A stretch of 64,000 nt of DNA. It comes from Trichodelitschia bisporula (taxonomy: Eukaryota). Position numbers and translations under genes: made by a program. Each line of letters starts with the position of its first letter. Position 1 is the first letter of the stretch. Of the stretch, positions 16,864-64,000 are shown piece after piece. The notes under the pieces were generated by a model. That model was not told the origin of the DNA, made no database searches, and saw only the letters and a program-made list of their open reading frames with translations. Location of the stretch: the NCBI GenBank assembly GCA_010356995.1, contig ML996688.1, forward strand, positions 372,001-436,000, read 5' to 3'.

Positions 16864-17281
16864 CGTGCCCACAGATCCATCGACCAGGCTTCCAGGTGCT
16901 TCCCAAAATCCATTTTCTGACATCCACACCACACCACTCATCCACCGCTCTATATACCCTCCTCGGGGGAACAGCCTTCCTATACCCCACATCCCCTTCA
17001 ACCACACCACCAACTCCCAAAGCACGACTCGCTCCAGAATGGCTCGCAAGAAGCGTTCCAAGGGCGGCAAGAAGAAGAACAGTGGCAATGCTGGGGCCTG
17101 TGATCATGCCTAGCGTACCTGCCTCTGATGGTCATGCAAAATCACTGCCCTTACCACCGCCTGGAAAAATGATGCTCCGTTCACCAGCACATTCACGAGT
17201 TCTTTGAGGGCACGTGCCCACAGGTTCATCAACTAGGTTTCCAGGGGCTTCCTGAAATCCATTTCCTGACATCGACACCAC
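16864..17281 (+). repeat. Diverged direct repeat of about 69 bp (16864-16932 and 17213-17281)
   Basis: cgtgcccacagatccatcgaccaggcttccaggtgcttcccaaaatccattttctgacatccacaccac vs cgtgcccacaggttcatcaactaggtttccaggggcttcctgaaatccatttcctgacatcgacaccac; differences are mostly transitions. Confidence 0.85.
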
Positions 17282-20200
17282 TGCATCCACCATCTTCCAC
17301 ACCACTCATACCACCCCACATCATTCAATATTATACACGCCAAAGCGAAGAGGTATCTATCTATATACCAACATCCGCAATTTGCGGAGACTTATAGACA
17401 TTGGCTTCGGAGCCATTCTACCCTACTCGCAAGCGGTCTCACGATGCGATGGCAGTTGGAGAAAGAGGCTAAGCGCCTAGGAGGCGAAGCGTCACTGTCC
17501 TATATACGCAGGTCGCAATCACCTGACGGAAGAGGATATTGAGGCATTCAGTCAGCTGCGCCTACGGGCACTTCATCCGCACAATCGTGGGTACTACGCC
17601 AATGTGGAGTGAGCAAGTCTCTCCGCATATCCTCACAAGAGAGTACGTTCTCATCCATTGATCAATATCACCGGTAACTAACTGAAGCGAAGAGAACCGT
17701 CGTGCGGCCCCTGCGGCGGATTATATATCAAGATGACGAGGATGACTTCGAACCCGTGGCCGCCGGTCCTCGCAATGGAACAGTTTGCACGCTTTGGCTC
17801 TGGTGCCCGCGACCCCCCTCGCCCTCGCGCTACGTCTCCGCCTCCGCGCCATGGACCTTCTGCCTTTATACGCCGAAGCCACCAAGAAGAATGGACGCAC
17901 ATATACAGTCAGCGCTGCGCAACCCCCAGCCCGTGTCTCGTTCGAGTGCTTTCTTCGCACCAAAACGCCAGAGTCTTCTCCGGCAGGCTGTTCTGAACAC
18001 AGGAGGAGCCTGAGCTGGAGAACGACATCATCCTACATTTGTCCATGAAAATCCCGGCAGCCATGCTTCTGCCAACGCGGTCGGTTTTACCGAAGTATAT
18101 GGTCCTGAAGGCTGGCAATGTCATCCTTCAGGGGACAGTCATGGGTGAATTCGCGGTCTACGCCCCGGGCCTGAGTCACTTATAGCTAACATCGTCTCCA
18201 AATGCCAAAGCGCTTGGACAGATTATAGAGAAGTTTACCTCGAGTGTTACCACGGTACGACCTGCTCCGGCAGCTCCGACTTCTGCTCCGGCTCCGGCAC
18301 CGCTCATCTCCGATCCCAACGCACTCCTGAATCTCGAGCGCAAACCTGGAAAAACTTTCCTCTAAGTCTATCGAGAACACCCTGAAGAAGTTCATTTCGG
18401 TGGTCGATGCCAAGAAACTTGCGACGGAGACCTCGACATCTGTTCCCGCGCCTTCGACTTCGACTTCTGTCTCTGCACCTCCGGTGTCTGCTCCTGCGCC
18501 TCTGTATTCATGAGTATGGGTAAGCCTTCTCAAGTCCCTACCCCCCTGCTGCTCATGGTTTGGCAAGGCCGATGCCACTCCATCCCCTCCTTGCTATTGA
18601 AGCTAACAACAGTTTAGTTATATAGCTTACGACCTCATTACAGCAGCAAAGAAGCTGCAGCATCTGCTTCTAGGCCACAAGGCTGCGACGCCTACCCAGG
18701 GCTTTTCACACCTACTCTCCTCCGTCCTTTTCGCATCGCAACATCGCTGTATACTCAGAGGTCGGCCACGTAGCCGTGCCTGAAGGTTATCAAAAATCAT
18801 CAAAAGTTATACTCGGTGCGGGTGGGACGAACGCTATAGTAGGTTTGCCTTACAACGCTCCAGCGTCAAAATTTTGTACTCTACTTCAATGGAGCTGTGC
18901 TCTCTCTTTTCGTCACCTGCGCGGCTTGACGTGACTCCACTTGTACATCTCCATGTGCGCCCGACACATCATCGCAGAACCATGGCTAACGGCGATAACT
19001 CAGTATTGAAAGGCAGTCAAGCCAGTGATCCGCGGCCGTCGTACTCTCAGGGTTCCGGTGACAATCTCAAATGGGCTGGGCGCAATCAGCAGCAGCTGTC
19101 GAACAACATCACCACCCTACCGAGGACTGCCGACACCCGAGATCATCAATACCCGGCGGCTAAAGGGCGTATGAACTTCCGCACCGCACAATTACTTCCC
19201 AGCCTTCTTGCCCTGCCCACGGCCCACCACTGCCGATGTGCCGTTCCTCCGTGAGATGGCGGGGCGGGGCGCGCAGTCATCAAGCAGCGGATGCAGCTGC
19301 AAAACTCGGATCTCCCCTGCCAGCGCTCTCAGCAATTCCACCTCAGATCTCGGCCAGCGTAGCTTCCCCCCCGCCCTCACGTCAGACGTACCTCGTACCT
19401 CGCCTATATACGCCATCACTGGTTGTATACTCACCAAGCTCCGCAACCAACGGGTCGCCGAGGAGTGACGGAAAGTTTGATCCAAAGACGATGGCCAAAA
19501 GGCTACTGGAGCCGCGCAGGCTCTTGGAGGCGTTCGAATGGGGGGGTGAATGGCATCTTCGATGGCGTTCTCCACCCGTTCGTACCTCACAAACACCATT
19601 CCTCAATTCTTCACCAATAATCCCCTCACGGCAACACACCTGCTCGAAGCCGCCGCCATGTCTGCTCCCGAGAGTAACTGCTCCGCCTCTCTCTCCTTGG
19701 CTGCGAAGCCCACTGGCAGTATCGGTGGCAATATACCCCAACCATCAACACATATCGTTGCCGCATGGTTCAGTGGAAAAACAATGCGACCTCTACGGAC
19801 GCCACTATATACTTCGTCAAGGAGGTGCAGACGAAGATCAGACTAGTTGATGTCTCCGACATTCCAACGGCTCCGGCTCAACGGCTCCGGCTCTCTTGTT
19901 CAAGATCCAAAATGAGATGCTTCAGTGTGCAGAACCGACACCGAAGATGACACAAACATTATATACATGGTCCACGGTCCTCCTGGGCCTGTCTTCGGTC
20001 CACCTCCGGTCATTGTGAATGGTCCTATGTATGGTCCTCTTGTTGGTCCTGTGGGGCCTCTGGGTCCGTTTGGCATGCCGTTCCCGCATGAGGGTGATCA
20101 TGTCTGATGCGCTGCTCATCCTGACGGGCGTCATAGTAAGTACTCCCTGAGCACCCTAGACACACGGGACCCTGGAAATCTTCAGACAAGCCAGGAAGCG

Positions 20201-57132: not shown

Positions 57133-57774
57133 ATGGGTGCCGACCAGTCGAAACCGCTCGGGGAGCCGACGCAGCATGTCTTTGCTTCGTTCGTGATCCC
57201 ATTCCATGCGCAATGGGCACTTTTGCTAACTCGAGCGCAGAGAGACGCCGACTCGCTTTTCCGGAGAGCTCGTCAACAAGCTGCAGGAGAGCACGCAGGT
57301 CGGTTTTCACGGATATCTGGTTGCTCATGGAGCTGATTTTGATAGTCTGATGGCACGCGCTCCGCAGACCTGGAGCTGAAAATCCAATCGCGCGTCGCCG
57401 CTGAGCTCGAGCGGTTAGCCGACGAGGAGGCCCTCCGCGTCGCGGAAACGATATCAAAAGCCGACTCTGGATCATCAAGCGACACGTCCGTTTCCCTTCT
57501 GGACAAAGTCACGGGCGAAGCAGCGGAGAAGGAGCGTCGCGCGCAGCTGAGCAACGGCTCCGTGACTAAGGAGATCGAAGCGCTGAAGCAGAAACTAGCG
57601 CATCGGAAAAAGTTGGACAAGGTGGATCCCGCAGTTGAGAGCGCGAAGGAGGAGCTTGTGCTCTGCTTGCGCCTGAATGACCGCCGGCCGCTTGACTGCT
57701 GGAAGGAGAAGGAGGCGTTTAAGAAGGCCGTTGCGCGGCTGGAACAGGACTTTGTTGACCGGACCTTACGGTAG
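57133..57774 (+). CDS. MIC19: MICOS subunit Mic19-like (DUF1690) (exons 57133-57188, 57241-57298, 57346-57774)
   Basis: Myristoylation-type MGADQSK start; ETPTRFSGELVNKLQES-SDGTRSADLELKIQSRVAAELERL; C-terminal CX10C CLRLNDRRPLDCWKE; introns 57189-57240 and 57299-57345. Confidence 0.9.
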
Positions 57775-58448
57775 TTTGCGCCAAATTCTCCAGTCTGGAC
57801 ATACAACATAGAGTATTGTACAATATCATGACCGTCATACCCTGGGGTCTGTTCTGTCCGGCTTCGTCTCTTGTATTGCATTCACACCATTAGAGGCTAC
57901 TATACTTGTCTCTCATGCACGACCTTATTGCACCACCTACCCCCTATCTCATATCCCTTTGTATTTACAGTTATGCTAATGGTTTCGAAGGGCTTCGAAG
58001 GGATCGCTCCATTGTCATTCAGGGGGTATAGCAAAATTCTTGGTGGACCTTACTGCCTCTGGACGGTAAGTGGAAGCTGTGATGGAGCAAATTTTCAACT
58101 AATATCTGATAGCAGTGGCTCATGCTTTTGTCCCAACTCATCTCTGCAACACTTCGTATATGCTGAATGAGGTCGGCAAGGTATGACGGCTGCGTACCTT
58201 CCCCAAGGGCTCCCCCGGAGGACTGCATCGTACCTTCCCCCAACAACACACGCGCTTCTCCATATACCATATGTATACTAGCGCCGTCGGCTTCCACTTA
58301 GCGAGTCAAGTCACGGGCTTCCAAGTCGAGGAGTATAAATACCTTCAACTTCTCCTTCTTTTTACAACCTCCGTACATCTCCTACAGCGAACTCTCTCTG
58401 TCTTCTGAATTCCCCTGTCCCGCAGCGAAAAAAAGCACGAGAACAAAA

Positions 58449-59209
58449 ATGGGACCGAAGGGTAAGTCCACTCCCATACATTACCCCTTAATCATTCTCA
58501 CACTTACTCCAAAAGCTGCCAAGTTCGGGGCGGATCTCCCGCCGGACCTCGTCTGGCCTAAGGAGATAGAGCTCGGGCTCGGGCCCTGCCGGGTTGTGAA
58601 CGACATGGATGGTGTTGTCTGTAGCTGTATTCGCGGCTACAGCTCCGTTCGTCTGTCAACCAGCACCTCGACAACCCACCTGAGGCGCCGTTGTGATCAC
58701 TGCCAACACCTGATGGTCTGGCATAGGGAGCGCAGTAAGTCTCTCCCATATATTCATATTTCATCTCATGCCTAACTCTCGCAGCTGCCGACGAGAAGAC
58801 TGCGGAGCCGTTCTATCCTGGCAAACGCTCTCATGATGCCATGGCGGCTGGAGAGACAAGCCCGGATGACCAGGAGGCGAAACGTGTCTGTACTGATGGT
58901 GTCACTGGCAATGCCGAGGATGCTGGTCCTACGACTGATGATAACTGCAATGCCAACCTCACGGTGGATGGTGTTGATCAGGCCAATGCGGGCGCTCCTT
59001 CTGGCACATCTACAGATTCTCTCAACTTCTCTAGTTAGTACCTTCGCTATGCAATAGACGCCTCGCTGACGTGACTGCAGCTTCTGCAGTGTGTGACTCG
59101 CAAACCGATGCCACTCCCATTCCCTCCCGCAAGTACCCCTTTCCCCCTTCATAGATTCTTTTCTAAATTAACCATAGCTTCCCACGACACTTCGGCGACC
59201 GAGGGTTAG
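58449..59209 (+). CDS. Array copy 1 (type A): small Cys/His protein, about 186 aa (exons 58449-58461, 58516-58734, 58785-59033, 59081-59128, 59178-59209)
   Basis: MGPK/A..LGPCRVVNDMDGVVCSCIRG..RCDHCQHLMVWH then EPFYPGKRSHDAMAAGE..EAKR. All four introns are phase 1 and the last is a putative GC-AG. If intron 3 is not spliced, the CDS stops at 59038. Confidence 0.7.
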
Positions 59210-59589
59210 AAGTTGGTGGAAGGGGCTTAGCAAAGCCGATTGCAACAAGCACCAACCCCTAGATAGTTTGTTCTAGCTTTCTCCAGCATGAATACAATCC
59301 TCTGTCTCTGACTCAACCATCTGCGACTGCCTGCGGTATTTAGCAGTGCCCCAAGGCCGTATCATTCCTTTCCCAGAGGTATCCCGCGCCCTTCTCTTCT
59401 ATACACATACTAGCGCCCTCCGCTTCTACTAACCGAGCCAAGACTCGAGCCTCGAAATCGAGGAGAGATATTTCCAACTTCTCCATTTCTCTACAACCAT
59501 ACATCTCGAACAACCACTTCTCCGCTCTCTACGGAAACCCGCCCGCCTAACACGAGAATAAGAGCAGGAAAACTAAAATTGCTGTAGAA

Positions 59590-60076
59590 ATGGCATCGAA
59601 GAGTAAGTCTACTCCCATACCTATCAACCATTCTCACCCCTACCCCAGAAGCGATCGAGCTCCCCACCGATTTCCCGAAGGACCTCGACATTCCCGAGGA
59701 GGTGGGGTTCGATCTGGGAGCCTGTCGGTTTGTGTTCCCCACGGGCGGTACCACTTACACCTGTAGTTGTGGTTACTGCGTCATCCCTCTGAACGATGAT
59801 ACATTGGCCGCCATCCTCGAGCACCACTGCTTGCACTGCGGTCATATGATGGCATGGTATGGCTCGCCCAGTGAGTACTTTCGCTATACAATAGACACTT
59901 TGCTGACTTGACTACAGCCTCCGCGGTACGCCACGAGCATACGCCGGGGGGTGCCACTCACCCCTCTTCTGGCAAGTACCCCTTTCCCCCTTCATAAACG
60001 CTTGGCGAACTTGACTATAGCTGTTCGCGACGCTTCGGTGAACGCTCCGAAAGCTAAAGAGCAGAATGGCCAGTAG
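59590..60076 (+). CDS. Array copy 2 (type B): small Cys/His protein, about 114 aa (exons 59590-59602, 59649-59870, 59918-59971, 60021-60076)
   Basis: MASK..DLGACRFVFPTGGTTYTCSCGYC..HCLHCGHMMAWY, ending in the conserved ..GQ-stop; NAGNAG first acceptor and a putative GC-AG third intron. Confidence 0.7.
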
Positions 60077-60536
60077 TTCTAGGTTACGTATGATGTGAGT
60101 CATCTGCGTTGTACCGTAGATTGGGATGCGCTTTCTCCAACTCTAGCTTCGCGGATGCACATCGGTTAAGTTCTAGTCCTTCAAATGAAAAAAATGGTCT
60201 TTACTCTCCAGATGCTGATATGCCTTGTGCTTTGCCCATGAAATATATATAGGGAGCAAATCTTCAATTAACAACTGGTAACAACGGCTCGAGCTTTTGT
60301 CCCATCTCATCTCTGCAACACTTCGTATATGCAGAATAGGTTCTTGGCAAGGGACGGCCGCTGAAAAACATGCCCTGAAGACTGCCCTAAGGAACTGCAT
60401 CGTTCCTTCCCTAAGAACATCCTCCGCACTTTTACTCTTCCACATATATACTAGTGCCCGCCGCTTCTACTCACCGAGCCAGGCCCCGAGCCTCAAAGTC
60501 GAGAGGTATAAATATCTCCAACTTCTCCTTCTTTTT

Positions 60537-60602
60537 ACAACCTCCGTACATCTCCTACAACCTCCGTATATATCTCCTACAACCTCCGTATATCTTCTAC
60601 AG
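60537..60602 (+). repeat. Triplication of a 20-22 bp unit in the 5' leader of array copy 3
   Basis: acaacctccgta(ca/tata/ta)tct(c/t)ct x3; it is single-copy in copy 1 (about 58364-58387). Confidence 0.85.
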
Positions 60603-60666
60603 CGAACTCTCTGCCTTTGAATTCTCCCACCCTTCAAACGCAATAACAAGAGCACGATCTATAGAA

Positions 60667-61122
60667 ATAGGGCCGAAGGGTAAGTCTACTCCTACACATC
60701 CCCCCTCGGGCATTCTTATGCTTACTCCACAAGCCGTCAAGTTCAAAGACGGATTCTCCCCGTGGACCTTATCTGGCCTGATTAGATAGAGATCGATCGG
60801 GCTCGGGGCCTTCCGGGTTGTTAACCCCATTGATGGTGCTGTCTATACCTATATACGCGGCCACAACACCGCTCCTCCGTCAACCGGCACCTCAGTAAAC
60901 CAACCAACGCGCCCTTATAAGTACTGCCAGCACCTATATAGTCTGGCATATGAAGCGCAGTAAGTCTCTCGCATATCTTCATGTTTCATCTCGAACCTAA
61001 TTGTCATAGCTGCCGATGAGATGGCTGCGGAGCCGTTCTATCCTGGCAAACGCTCTCATGCTGCGATGGCGGCTGGAGAGACAGGCCCGAATGGCCAGGA
61101 ACCGAAGACCGAGGGTCAGTAG
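60667..61122 (+). pseudogene. Array copy 3 (type A), inactivated paralog of copy 1
   Basis: ATG->ATA at 60667, in-frame TAG at 60783-60785, a 4-nt insertion, three TGT->TAT Cys losses and a second frameshift; splice sites still recognisable. Confidence 0.85.
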
Positions 61123-61499
61123 TTGGTAGAACGGGCTTAGCAAAGCCGATTGCACCAAACACCAACCCCTAGATCGTTTGTACTAGCTTTTGCCATCATC
61201 AATTCAACCCTATGTCGCTGACTCAGCCCATCTGTGATTGCCTGAGAACAGTGCCCCAGGGACTGCATCCTTCCTTCCGCAAAGATGTCCTCCGCACTTC
61301 TCCACTTCCATATATATATTAGCTCCGTCTGCTTCTATTCACCGCCCCAGGCCCCGAACCTCGAAGTCGAGGAGTATAAGTATGTCCAACTTCCACATTT
61401 TCTCACAACCATACACCTTCCCACAACTCTCCACCGTCTCCATCCCCCGCTCCCCCATCACAAGCACCAAAGCACCGAAAACACAAAATCACCGCAGAG

Positions 61500-61982
61500 A
61501 TGGAAGCAACTGGTAAGCCCCACTCCCACCCACCCCCTGAAATCATTCTCACCCTAGTACCAGAAGCGCCCAAGCCCAGCACGCCCAACACGCCCGATAC
61601 GCCCAGCACCGTCGGCCCGGCCATGAACCTCGACCCCCCCGACAAGATGGAGATCAGCCTGGGAGCCTGTCGGGTGGTCGTCCTTACGGATGGTGTGGCC
61701 TGCACTTGTACCCGCGGCGTCTGTACCGCCCGTGTGGACACCTCGACGCTGGTGTCTATCCTGGAGGACTTCTGCATCAACCGCCATCACATGATAAAGT
61801 GGCATGCCTCACACAGTGGCGAGTATGGTGAGCATTTGTATATCTTTGTGTTAGCTTTCGTACTTAAGATTTATATGTGACTCCGGTACCTTCTCGGGCG
61901 TACCCCTTTCCCCCTGAATGGACGCTGAGCTGACGTGATCATAGGCTTCAAGGAACAGGAGCAGAAAGACCAGGAGCAGTAG
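61500..61982 (+). CDS. Array copy 4 (type B): small Cys/His protein, about 104 aa (exons 61500-61512, 61564-61827, 61945-61982)
   Basis: MEAT..ISLGACRVVVLTDGVACTCTRGVC..FCINRHHMIKWH. One conserved Cys is Arg, and a TAG lies 3 codons before the ancestral GQ-stop (61989-61991), so it may be decaying. Confidence 0.62.
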
Positions 61983-62654
61983 GGCCAGTAGCCTGGATGG
62001 ATTGACAGGTTAAGGCGCTGGGGCGTTGCTTGACCCGGGTTGCCAGTCCTTGTGAGGTTATGATGTGGTCCTGTGCGTTGCACTACGGGTGCGGATGCGG
62101 ATGCGGTTTACCCATCTCGGCGCCCTGGAATTGCACATCAGCTTGATTCTAGGCCTCAGAATAAACAGTGGTCTTGAATTGCTAGATGCTGATATGCCTT
62201 GTGCTTGTTAGACGATCGTGTAATGTGAAGGTATGGAGGCTTATCAAAGCTGAGTGCACCAAAACCGGACCCTTTGATAGTTTGTTCTAGCTTTCTCCAT
62301 CATCCATACAATCCACTACCTCTTGACTGAACAAGCTTCGATTGCCACAGCCCTTGCCAAAAAACGGCGGCTGCAAAACACTCCCCAAAGACTACCCCCA
62401 GGACTGCAACGTTCCTTTCACCAAAGGACATCCTCTACGCTTCTCCTCTTCTACATACGTACTAGCGTCCTTCGTTTCAACTACGTATTCACGAGCCAAG
62501 TCACGAGCCTCGACGAGTCGAGGAGTATAAGTATATTCGACTTAATATTTTCTAGAACCAAACATCTTCGACAACAACTCATCCACCGTCAACATCCCCC
62601 CACTCCCCCAACAACAAGAACCAAAGCCGGCGAAAACGCAAAATCGCCGCAGAA

Positions 62655-63122
62655 ATGGAGGTGACGGGTAAGTCTCCTACTCCTATATATCCCCCTTAAC
62701 CACTGTAATTCCCTATCTCCAGACGCGTCCAAGCTCAACACTGGCGGCAAGCCCAACGCCAGCGGCCCGGCTAAGGATCTCAACCTCCACGACAAGATGG
62801 AGGTAAGCCTAGGAGCCTGTCGGGTCGTCGTCGTCACGAACGGTGTGGCCTGTGCGTGCACCCGCGGCCTCTGCTTCCCCCGTGTGAACAACAGCACCAG
62901 GGTGTCCATCATGAAGCACGTCTGTATCAACTGCCATCATATGATGGAATGGCATGACTTGTACAGTGGCGAGTATAGTAAGTATCTTTATATCTACATG
63001 TCAGCTTTTCGTATATACAATTCTAGAACTAACAAGTACCCACTTTCCCCCTGAATGGACGCTGAGCTGACTTGACTATAGCCTCCCACGCCTCCATGGA
63101 ACAAGGGCAGCAGGGCCAGTAG
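62655..63122 (+). CDS. Array copy 5 (type B): small Cys/His protein, about 102 aa (exons 62655-62667, 62723-62977, 63082-63122)
   Basis: MEVT..VSLGACRVVVVTNGVACACTRGLC..VCINCHHMMEWH, ending QQGQ-stop; GTAAGT donors at 62668 and 62978. Confidence 0.7.
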
Positions 63123-64000
63123 GTTGGGTGGATTTGACGAATCATGGCGTTGAGGCGCGATTACTTGCGGAGTGTGGCTTCTTAGACAGTGACCGTCATT
63201 TGGATGGCTTGATCTAGGTTGCGGGAATTCTTTGTGTGCTTTTGATGCGTGTGATGGTGTTGAAGGTGTTGCTAGACCTGAGCCGCCGGTGTGCGTGTGC
63301 TTATGAGGAGTCAGTTATGTTGCAACATGGATACGAATGCCGTTTACCCGTCTCCAGCGCCATAGAGACGCACATCGGTTAAGTCTTCAAAATCTCCGAA
63401 TGCTGATATGTCTTGTTTTTGCCCATGAAACACATGTAGTAGCTGCCGGCAGGTACGTGGAGTGATGTATCATTACTGATGTCAACATCAAGCTCGCTTG
63501 ACATGTTAGCCACTCCTTCCTAGCGTTCGTGGCGTCTTCCCTGCCCGTGGGTTAGGTATCCTTCCCAAAGCGAAGGACAACACCTGCCCCACGAACCAGC
63601 ACTCTCAGGCCCTCAAGCACTCGACCGCGGGACCAAAAATATACACAATAAGACCTGAATTTCAGAGTTGCACCTAGCCTTTGGGCCGCACCCTATCGTA
63701 GAGCGCTATATACAAAGCCGCCGCCCTACCAACCGTCAATTGGCAGACCGCGCAAGCTCACACTCAGCACAATCGCACATCTCGAAAACACGCAACACCG
63801 TCTACGCTATCCGCGCAAAAAACTTTTATCATCTTCCATCATCTCATCTCCGCTAATCACACAAAATTTCCTCCCAACAGTTACAATCCCCATCAAACGC
63901 CCCGCACCAATTCTCTCTGCGTCTACTCCAGCGGAATGCCCTCATACTCACCGTACCCCAGCGCAAGATTCATATTCTCTGCCCATCACATTAGCCAGCC

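Follow-up and report, generated by a model that had tools for sequence, protein, structure and literature searches.

We analysed a 64,000-nucleotide stretch of contig ML996688.1 (hereafter the window) from Trichodelitschia bisporula, a fungus that lives on dung and is assigned by database labels to the Dothideomycetes. On its plus strand, positions 58083-63430 consist of five homologous repeat units, each of which combines a shared promoter-like block with a first exon of 13 nt and a second exon rich in Cys and His codons. This array comprises four open genes (A, B, B' and B'') and one dead copy (A') in tandem. Profile comparisons indicate that the module encoded by exon 2 is very probably homologous to the header at the N-terminus of one group of fungal CR (Crinkler-RHS-type) proteins, which a review describes as a header followed by a nucleoside triphosphatase (NTPase) and a restriction endonuclease (REase) domain (PMC5289972). 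As no enzyme body occurs at the locus, we favour, with moderate confidence, the view that the array as a whole is best explained as a local tandem set of header-only genes.

Homology of the module to CR protein headers

The module follows the signature G-x-C..C-x-C-x2-G..C-x2-C-x-H-x4-H, which only A and B'' show in full; B and B' deviate from it, and in A' it is destroyed. A genome-wide scan with the pattern C-x2-C-x-H-x4-H returned 69 matches, versus 39 for the control, and the upstream Cys residues lay in frame in seven of the 69, namely A, B'' and five other loci. Four of these five loci carried a P-loop NTPase downstream, accompanied in three by a nuclease-like region, a label based on its motifs and on the review because Pfam matched nothing there. 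A search with two of these NTPase proteins returned 14 proteins, six of which had a Cys/His N-terminus (P0010-P0013, P0018 and P0021; four resident, one from Monascus and one from Aspergillus), while two (P0015 and P0017) matched the Pfam Crinkler domain PF20147 above cut-off in the same N-terminal slot and six had neither. In a metagenome scan, 80 of 92 related loci were kept, 69 of them with at least 300 nt before the Walker A motif; the full Cys/His motif preceded Walker A in 14 of the 80.

Profiles linked the two sets in both directions. Searched against the 2572 segments of these 80 NTPase loci, a profile built on the array alone placed headers upstream of Walker A in all of the top 11 ranks (best E 2e-4). 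Conversely, a profile of 16 headers from outside Trichodelitschia, searched against 5098 segments including 67 other CxxCxHxxxxH loci, ranked A first (E 3.5e-7), B'' second (6.7e-6), B' third (2.6e-5) and B ninth (0.12); when sequences were shuffled with the ligands held fixed, none of 1000 shuffles reached the score of A, B'' or B', and seven reached that of B. HHalign comparison of the array with the foreign headers gave 96.8% and an E value of 2.3e-10. The likeness extended beyond the Cys and His positions, a Gly three residues after CxC being present in 17 of 20 headers and a Met two residues after the first His in 12 of 20; ten of the 20 also had an extra Cys five residues after CxC.

By ordinary searches, the family appeared to be an orphan. 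Pfam returned nothing near cut-off, whether for the exon-2 pieces of four copies, for two full proteins or for an alignment (A3), and homolog searches with the four-copy alignment recovered the array's own proteins only (one of 30 candidates, and one of 1590 longer ones). HMMER over 1.84 billion representatives gave two matches, both the array's own annotated proteins, and genes B and B' were absent from the matches of the protein database searches. No family members were found by the genome searches beyond the array locus. The sequence-only reading, which had called the family lineage-specific, was right about the array, a single-locus orphan, but not about its domain, a widespread header of fungal CR NTPase-nucleases. 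A sequence search of the PDB returned weak EGF-like matches (E at least 0.026) that spanned the first three Cys only and were rejected.

As the order of the ligands is the same as in the GCN5/PCAF zinc region, we propose that the module probably folds round a pair of zinc ions, with five Cys and two His residues as ligands. In GCN5, the ligands are Cys107, 113, 115, 142 and 145 and His147 and 151, with Cys145 bridging in a Zn2Cys5His2 site (PMC8586995). Predicted models in the ESM Atlas gave as neighbours ascomycete clusters without names (635, 145 and 967 aa; template modelling (TM) scores 0.68, 0.60 and 0.57), PCAF_N (TM 0.51-0.53 between predicted models, and the best feature match with a score of 0.82, the latter taken as a lead only) and, weakly, plant mini zinc fingers (TM 0.48). 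An Atlas search with B returned small phage and bacterial proteins at 0.91-0.92 with low recognition, again a lead only.

Other module and CR loci in the same genome were inspected. On contig C20 (L092:7068-7837), the fifth of the in-frame loci is a CR copy that retains the Cys/His header and upstream DNA at 89% identity to a copy on C21, and its NTPase-nuclease body is replaced by different sequence. A partial header on C4 (L113:1683-1856) lies antisense to a CR NTPase frame and overlaps the start of this frame, as if inverted, and a degenerate header on C9 (L110:1727-2553) has two Cys residues changed to Tyr and is out of frame with the downstream NTPase. By eye, a small unlinked gene on C3 (L097:5130-5365, minus strand) has an apparently related, intron-split module with C-x-C-x2-F; Pfam on the part after the intron was uninformative.

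Gene structure, expression and history of the array

Five paralogous genes had been proposed from the sequence, and five repeat units are indeed present, but A' is a pseudogene. Gene A (58449..59209, plus strand, as are all units) encodes 186 aa in five exons (58449-58461, 58516-58734, 58785-59033, 59081-59128 and 59178-59209) and is longer than a three-exon model would make it; our model is identical to NCBI KAF2404234.1; its full seven-ligand module (58581-58724) is followed by an acidic low-complexity tail. The last intron of A (59129-59177) is of the GC-AG type; in B, B' and B'', the homologous sequence either stays unspliced or supplies the acceptor region of intron 2. Gene B (59590..59997, 103 aa) has exons 59590-59602, 59652-59870 (alternative acceptor 59649) and 59918-59997, with the module at 59717-59860. 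Gene B' (61500..61982, 103 aa) has exons 61500-61512, 61567-61827 and 61945-61982, its intron 1 being placed by homology, and the module at 61662-61805. Gene B'' (62655..63122, 102 aa; exons 62655-62667, 62723-62977 and 63082-63122) carries a full seven-ligand module at 62812-62955 and is identical to NCBI KAF2404235.1. The A' copy of A (60667..61122) has ATA at the place homologous to the ATG, and its exon 2 contains four indels (+1, +1, +4 and +1), a premature in-frame TAG and four Cys residues changed to Phe or Tyr.

The 13-nt first coding exon described earlier was found in each unit, directly followed by GTAAG. The first Cys-Cys spacing, previously given as x8/10, is x10 in A, B' and B'' and x12 in B. 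The open-copy proteins, 102-186 aa long with low-complexity tails, showed no N-terminal hydrophobic stretch (maximum Kyte-Doolittle value of any 9-mer in the first 25 aa at most 0.33), so that, judged by hydropathy, they lack the signal peptide of small secreted cysteine-rich effectors, as had been claimed. The promoter-like block, which includes a TATA-like element, precedes each unit and lies at 58217..58369 for A and at about 59349-59515, 60390-60542, 61258-61410 and 62396-62543 for the others (repeat families D2, D6, D18 and D19; plus strand); its copies are 0.73-0.78 identical in pairs and may well work as promoters.

Transcription was assessed in four sequencing runs, two DNA-like and two presumed to be RNA, the latter from one sample, whose contigs were examined for skipped introns; such contigs can show the presence of transcripts and not their absence. 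In gene A, introns 1-3 (GT-AG) and intron 4 (GC-AG) were skipped in contigs of both RNA-type runs. The pseudogene is still transcribed and spliced, as introns 60680-60733 and 60960-61009 of A' were skipped. One contig (depth 5.5) lacked intron 2 of gene B and an upstream intron at 59379-59442, and another (depth 2.1) lacked intron 2 of B'. None of these splice joints was present in the DNA runs. The earlier statement that all units are spliced is hence borne out for A, for the A' introns and for intron 2 of B and B', but not for the first introns of B and B' or for B'', where the joints lie on the other strand. The spliced antisense transcript over B'' (62598 to 63923 or 63978, minus strand) has introns 62986-63043 and 63300-63347, whose CT..AC joints correspond to minus-strand GT-AG, and in one contig it is continuous with the mRNA of the neighbouring ARG5,6-type gene. 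It is probably a 1.3-kb, two-intron 3' untranslated region (UTR) of that gene, and it could silence or interfere with B''. One RNA contig (57344-58386) links the left-hand neighbour to the promoter region of A through an intron at 58066-58112, reflecting either read-through at the 3' end or an extended 5' leader of A.

Over a 59-codon core, the four open copies share 36-66% amino-acid identity at synonymous divergences (dS) of 0.52-1.04, with no gaps and no stops, and the ratio of nonsynonymous to synonymous divergence (dN/dS) ranges from 0.39 to 0.67, being below 1 in all six pairs. In the comparison of A with A', dN/dS was about 2 at a dS of 0.16 over 69 codons. We infer that the strongest sign of purifying selection is the reading frame itself, which was held in the four open copies, whereas A' had already acquired its four indels at its low divergence. 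Pairwise identity reached 33/42 in the seven ligand columns versus 121/312 in the other columns, in agreement with the suggestion that ligands are kept while the residues between them diverge, although B and B' have lost ligands.

The upstream spacers (identity 0.74 for A/A' and 0.82 for B/B') support the earlier idea that an A-B block was duplicated to A'-B'. Exon 2, with identities of 0.77 for A/A', 0.78 for B'/B'', 0.61 for B/B' and 0.60 for B/A, does not follow it throughout: B is equally far from B' and from A, and therefore conversion or a chimeric crossover is needed besides the block duplication. Heavy repeat-induced point mutation (RIP) was not indicated (TpA/ApT 0.89; (CA+TG)/(AC+GT) 1.16; of 55 transitions from A to A', 22 fell in a CpA/TpG context); mild RIP is possible. 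New copies arise by duplication and others decay: A and B'' are complete, B and B' ligand-altered and A' dead. The picture of intracellular, zinc-binding proteins under birth-and-death evolution probably holds, given one pseudogene, one relic and the low dN/dS of all open pairs. The relic, a degenerate copy of intron 2 and exon 3 of A (17355..17637, plus strand; blastn E 2.6e-8, local alignment), lies 41 kb upstream of the array, and inspection by eye shows that a short segment is also duplicated locally in this stretch, near 16880 and 17235. A transposon origin was rejected, the DNA search having matched the array alone.

The array is flanked by housekeeping genes. On the left lies a DUF1690 gene (57134..57774, plus strand; PF07956, E 1.8e-25), which we take to be MIC19-like and whose introns are skipped in RNA contigs, and on the right the ARG5,6-type gene, whose product combines AA_kinase, NAT and semialdehyde dehydrogenase domains.

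Competing explanations and the proposed role

Header-only genes are the preferred explanation because the locus has no enzyme body: neither the window nor the 20 kb that follow contained an NTPase or nuclease relic, and nine CR proteins matched no body in the array. The header-retaining, body-replaced CR copy on C20 of the same genome also speaks for it.

Several results weigh against this reading. The 14 metagenome headers were chosen by motif pattern, and 11 of them accompany one NTPase clade, so that few independent lineages are represented. A profile built from the four CR headers annotated in this genome misses the array, and the array-only profile leaves the degenerate resident headers on C9 and C4 at background. 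Ligand columns are lost in two of the four open copies, two in B (Tyr at the second Cys column, a CxC following two residues further on, and Tyr in place of the last His) and one in B' (Arg at the fifth Cys, the position that would correspond to the bridging Cys of GCN5). Only one of the six dN/dS values is significantly below 1 (B'/B'', 0.39, p 0.016 uncorrected). Regarding expression, intron 1 of B is retained in the sole contig covering it, that of depth 5.5, and retention would shift the frame; splicing of intron 1 of B' and sense splicing of B'' were not seen in the RNA-type contigs, where the joints over B'' are antisense only, and full-length sense transcripts of B, B' and B'' were not seen in these contigs from one sample. 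Finally, both AlphaFold models are weak (predicted local distance difference test scores 52 and 59); they matched nothing (best VIA Z 2.8 and 2.9; best Foldseek E 1.3), and the absence of PCAF_N from these matches counts neither way.

Part of this evidence would fit decaying debris, that is, truncated CR genes without the enzyme body that were amplified by unequal crossing-over and drift without function. The death of A' in spite of its transcription, the ligand losses of B and B', the five non-significant dN/dS tests, the broken or rearranged CR loci on C20, C9 and C4 and the position of B'' beneath its neighbour's antisense UTR all point that way. Nevertheless, we consider this explanation fairly unlikely, as frame, splice sites and promoter are kept in four copies across dS values of 0.5-1.0 with 59 codons free of gaps, conservation in the ligand columns is double that elsewhere, and A is fully spliced in both RNA-type runs.

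The module might instead be an old mobile fungal domain, and its carriers independent small zinc proteins with a role apart from CR proteins, for instance as nuclear adaptors or ubiquitin-pathway partners. This ligand order recurs in the zinc region of GCN5/PCAF, which is needed for E3 activity (PMC8586995), in the plant mini zinc fingers found by structure and in the small C3 gene, and the resident CR headers miss the array. Against this stand the C-x-C-x2-G and H-x-M signature common to the array and the CR headers, the fact that CR headers are the array's only significant profile matches, and the failure of PF06466 (PCAF_N) to match any copy, which together make an independent role improbable. 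A PF06466 search of the genome matched nowhere, the controls likewise giving no match. That the array itself is a locus for allorecognition or meiotic drive, with copies serving as variable recognition or antidote factors, would suit the tandem arrangement, the cores only 36-66% identical and the tie to a conflict protein family, yet it is very improbable given the lack of a toxin or NOD-like receptor (NLR)-type partner at the locus, of any open pair with dN/dS above 1 and of flanks other than housekeeping genes. The defence or conflict context proposed from the sequence fits the CR link, but evidence for allorecognition or meiotic drive was not found.

For the header-only genes, we tentatively suggest a role as enzyme-free interaction modules, perhaps decoys or adaptors, that damp or redirect a conflict system, though this functional part is less secure than the gene set itself. 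Each gene would encode a CR header module alone, without the NTPase-nuclease, and the resulting intracellular proteins of 100-190 aa, having no catalytic part, would act by binding. They might occupy the partners or docking sites used by CR headers, much like plant mini zinc fingers in the case of ZHD factors, and the conflict system of CR proteins could be damped or redirected as a result. The failure of the resident-header profile implies that the array did not branch off recently from the genome's own CR genes, which weakens the role of a matched decoy. A more specific version seems unlikely, in which fungi maintain header-only microProteins as dedicated intracellular decoys or antidotes for their own CR NTPase-nucleases, and in which these conflict proteins are tied to the ubiquitin machinery by their header, a binuclear zinc domain of GCN5/PCAF type that would be new.

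These results suggest that a family which looks like an orphan in sequence searches is in fact a domain split off from a conflict system already known. The Cys/His header has no Pfam model, though it is present on CR NTPase proteins of several fungal classes (L093-L096, L114-L193), and it merits a family of its own. In addition, the array offers natural enzyme-free versions of the header as 60-residue test pieces, since complete copies adjoin ligand-altered and dead ones. No description of a Cys/His CR header or of the array was found in the literature; Zhang et al. 2016, reportedly the primary source on CR proteins behind the review, or its supplements may list such a header. The consulted sections of PMC12693581 make no mention of headers.

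Comparison with known systems

Seven ligands, arranged as C, C-x-C, C-x2-C-x-H, H, are common to the array and PCAF_N (PF06466). The spacings differ, being x10 and x21 in the array against x5 and x26, with x4 rather than x3 before the last His by the numbering in the review (PMC8586995), and the array proteins have no Trp after CxC, no coiled coil, no MSL3-like region and no match to the Pfam model. By profile, they are not PCAF_N members.

Plant mini zinc finger (MIF) microProteins of the zinc finger-homeodomain (ZF-HD) family inhibit ZHD factors by forming heterodimers (PMC10415114). As in the MIFs, a small zinc module is encoded alone beside larger proteins bearing it; the array genes encode a single domain common to larger resident proteins, as P0010-P0013 carry the module, distantly. 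Inhibition has been shown for MIFs, whereas the array is likened to them by logic and not by established homology.

The closest relationship is with the CR proteins. The array domain behaves as a header-type domain in reciprocal profile matches, its relatives being the headers of NTPase-nucleases whose sisters carry the Crinkler ubiquitin-like (Ubl) header, and both groups lack a signal peptide. The array, however, encodes no C-terminal NTPase or REase (nor kinase or peptidase), and as the toxin body is missing, its genes are not CR proteins themselves. Their header is also of another kind, since the portion of the CR review consulted names Ubl, helical and Myb helix-turn-helix headers and no Cys/His header (PMC5289972), and no copy matched a Ubl header or PF20147. 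That review treats the function of CR headers, and the means by which free-living fungi withstand the CR nucleases they encode, as open questions. By these comparisons, the array genes are stand-alone versions of a CR header.

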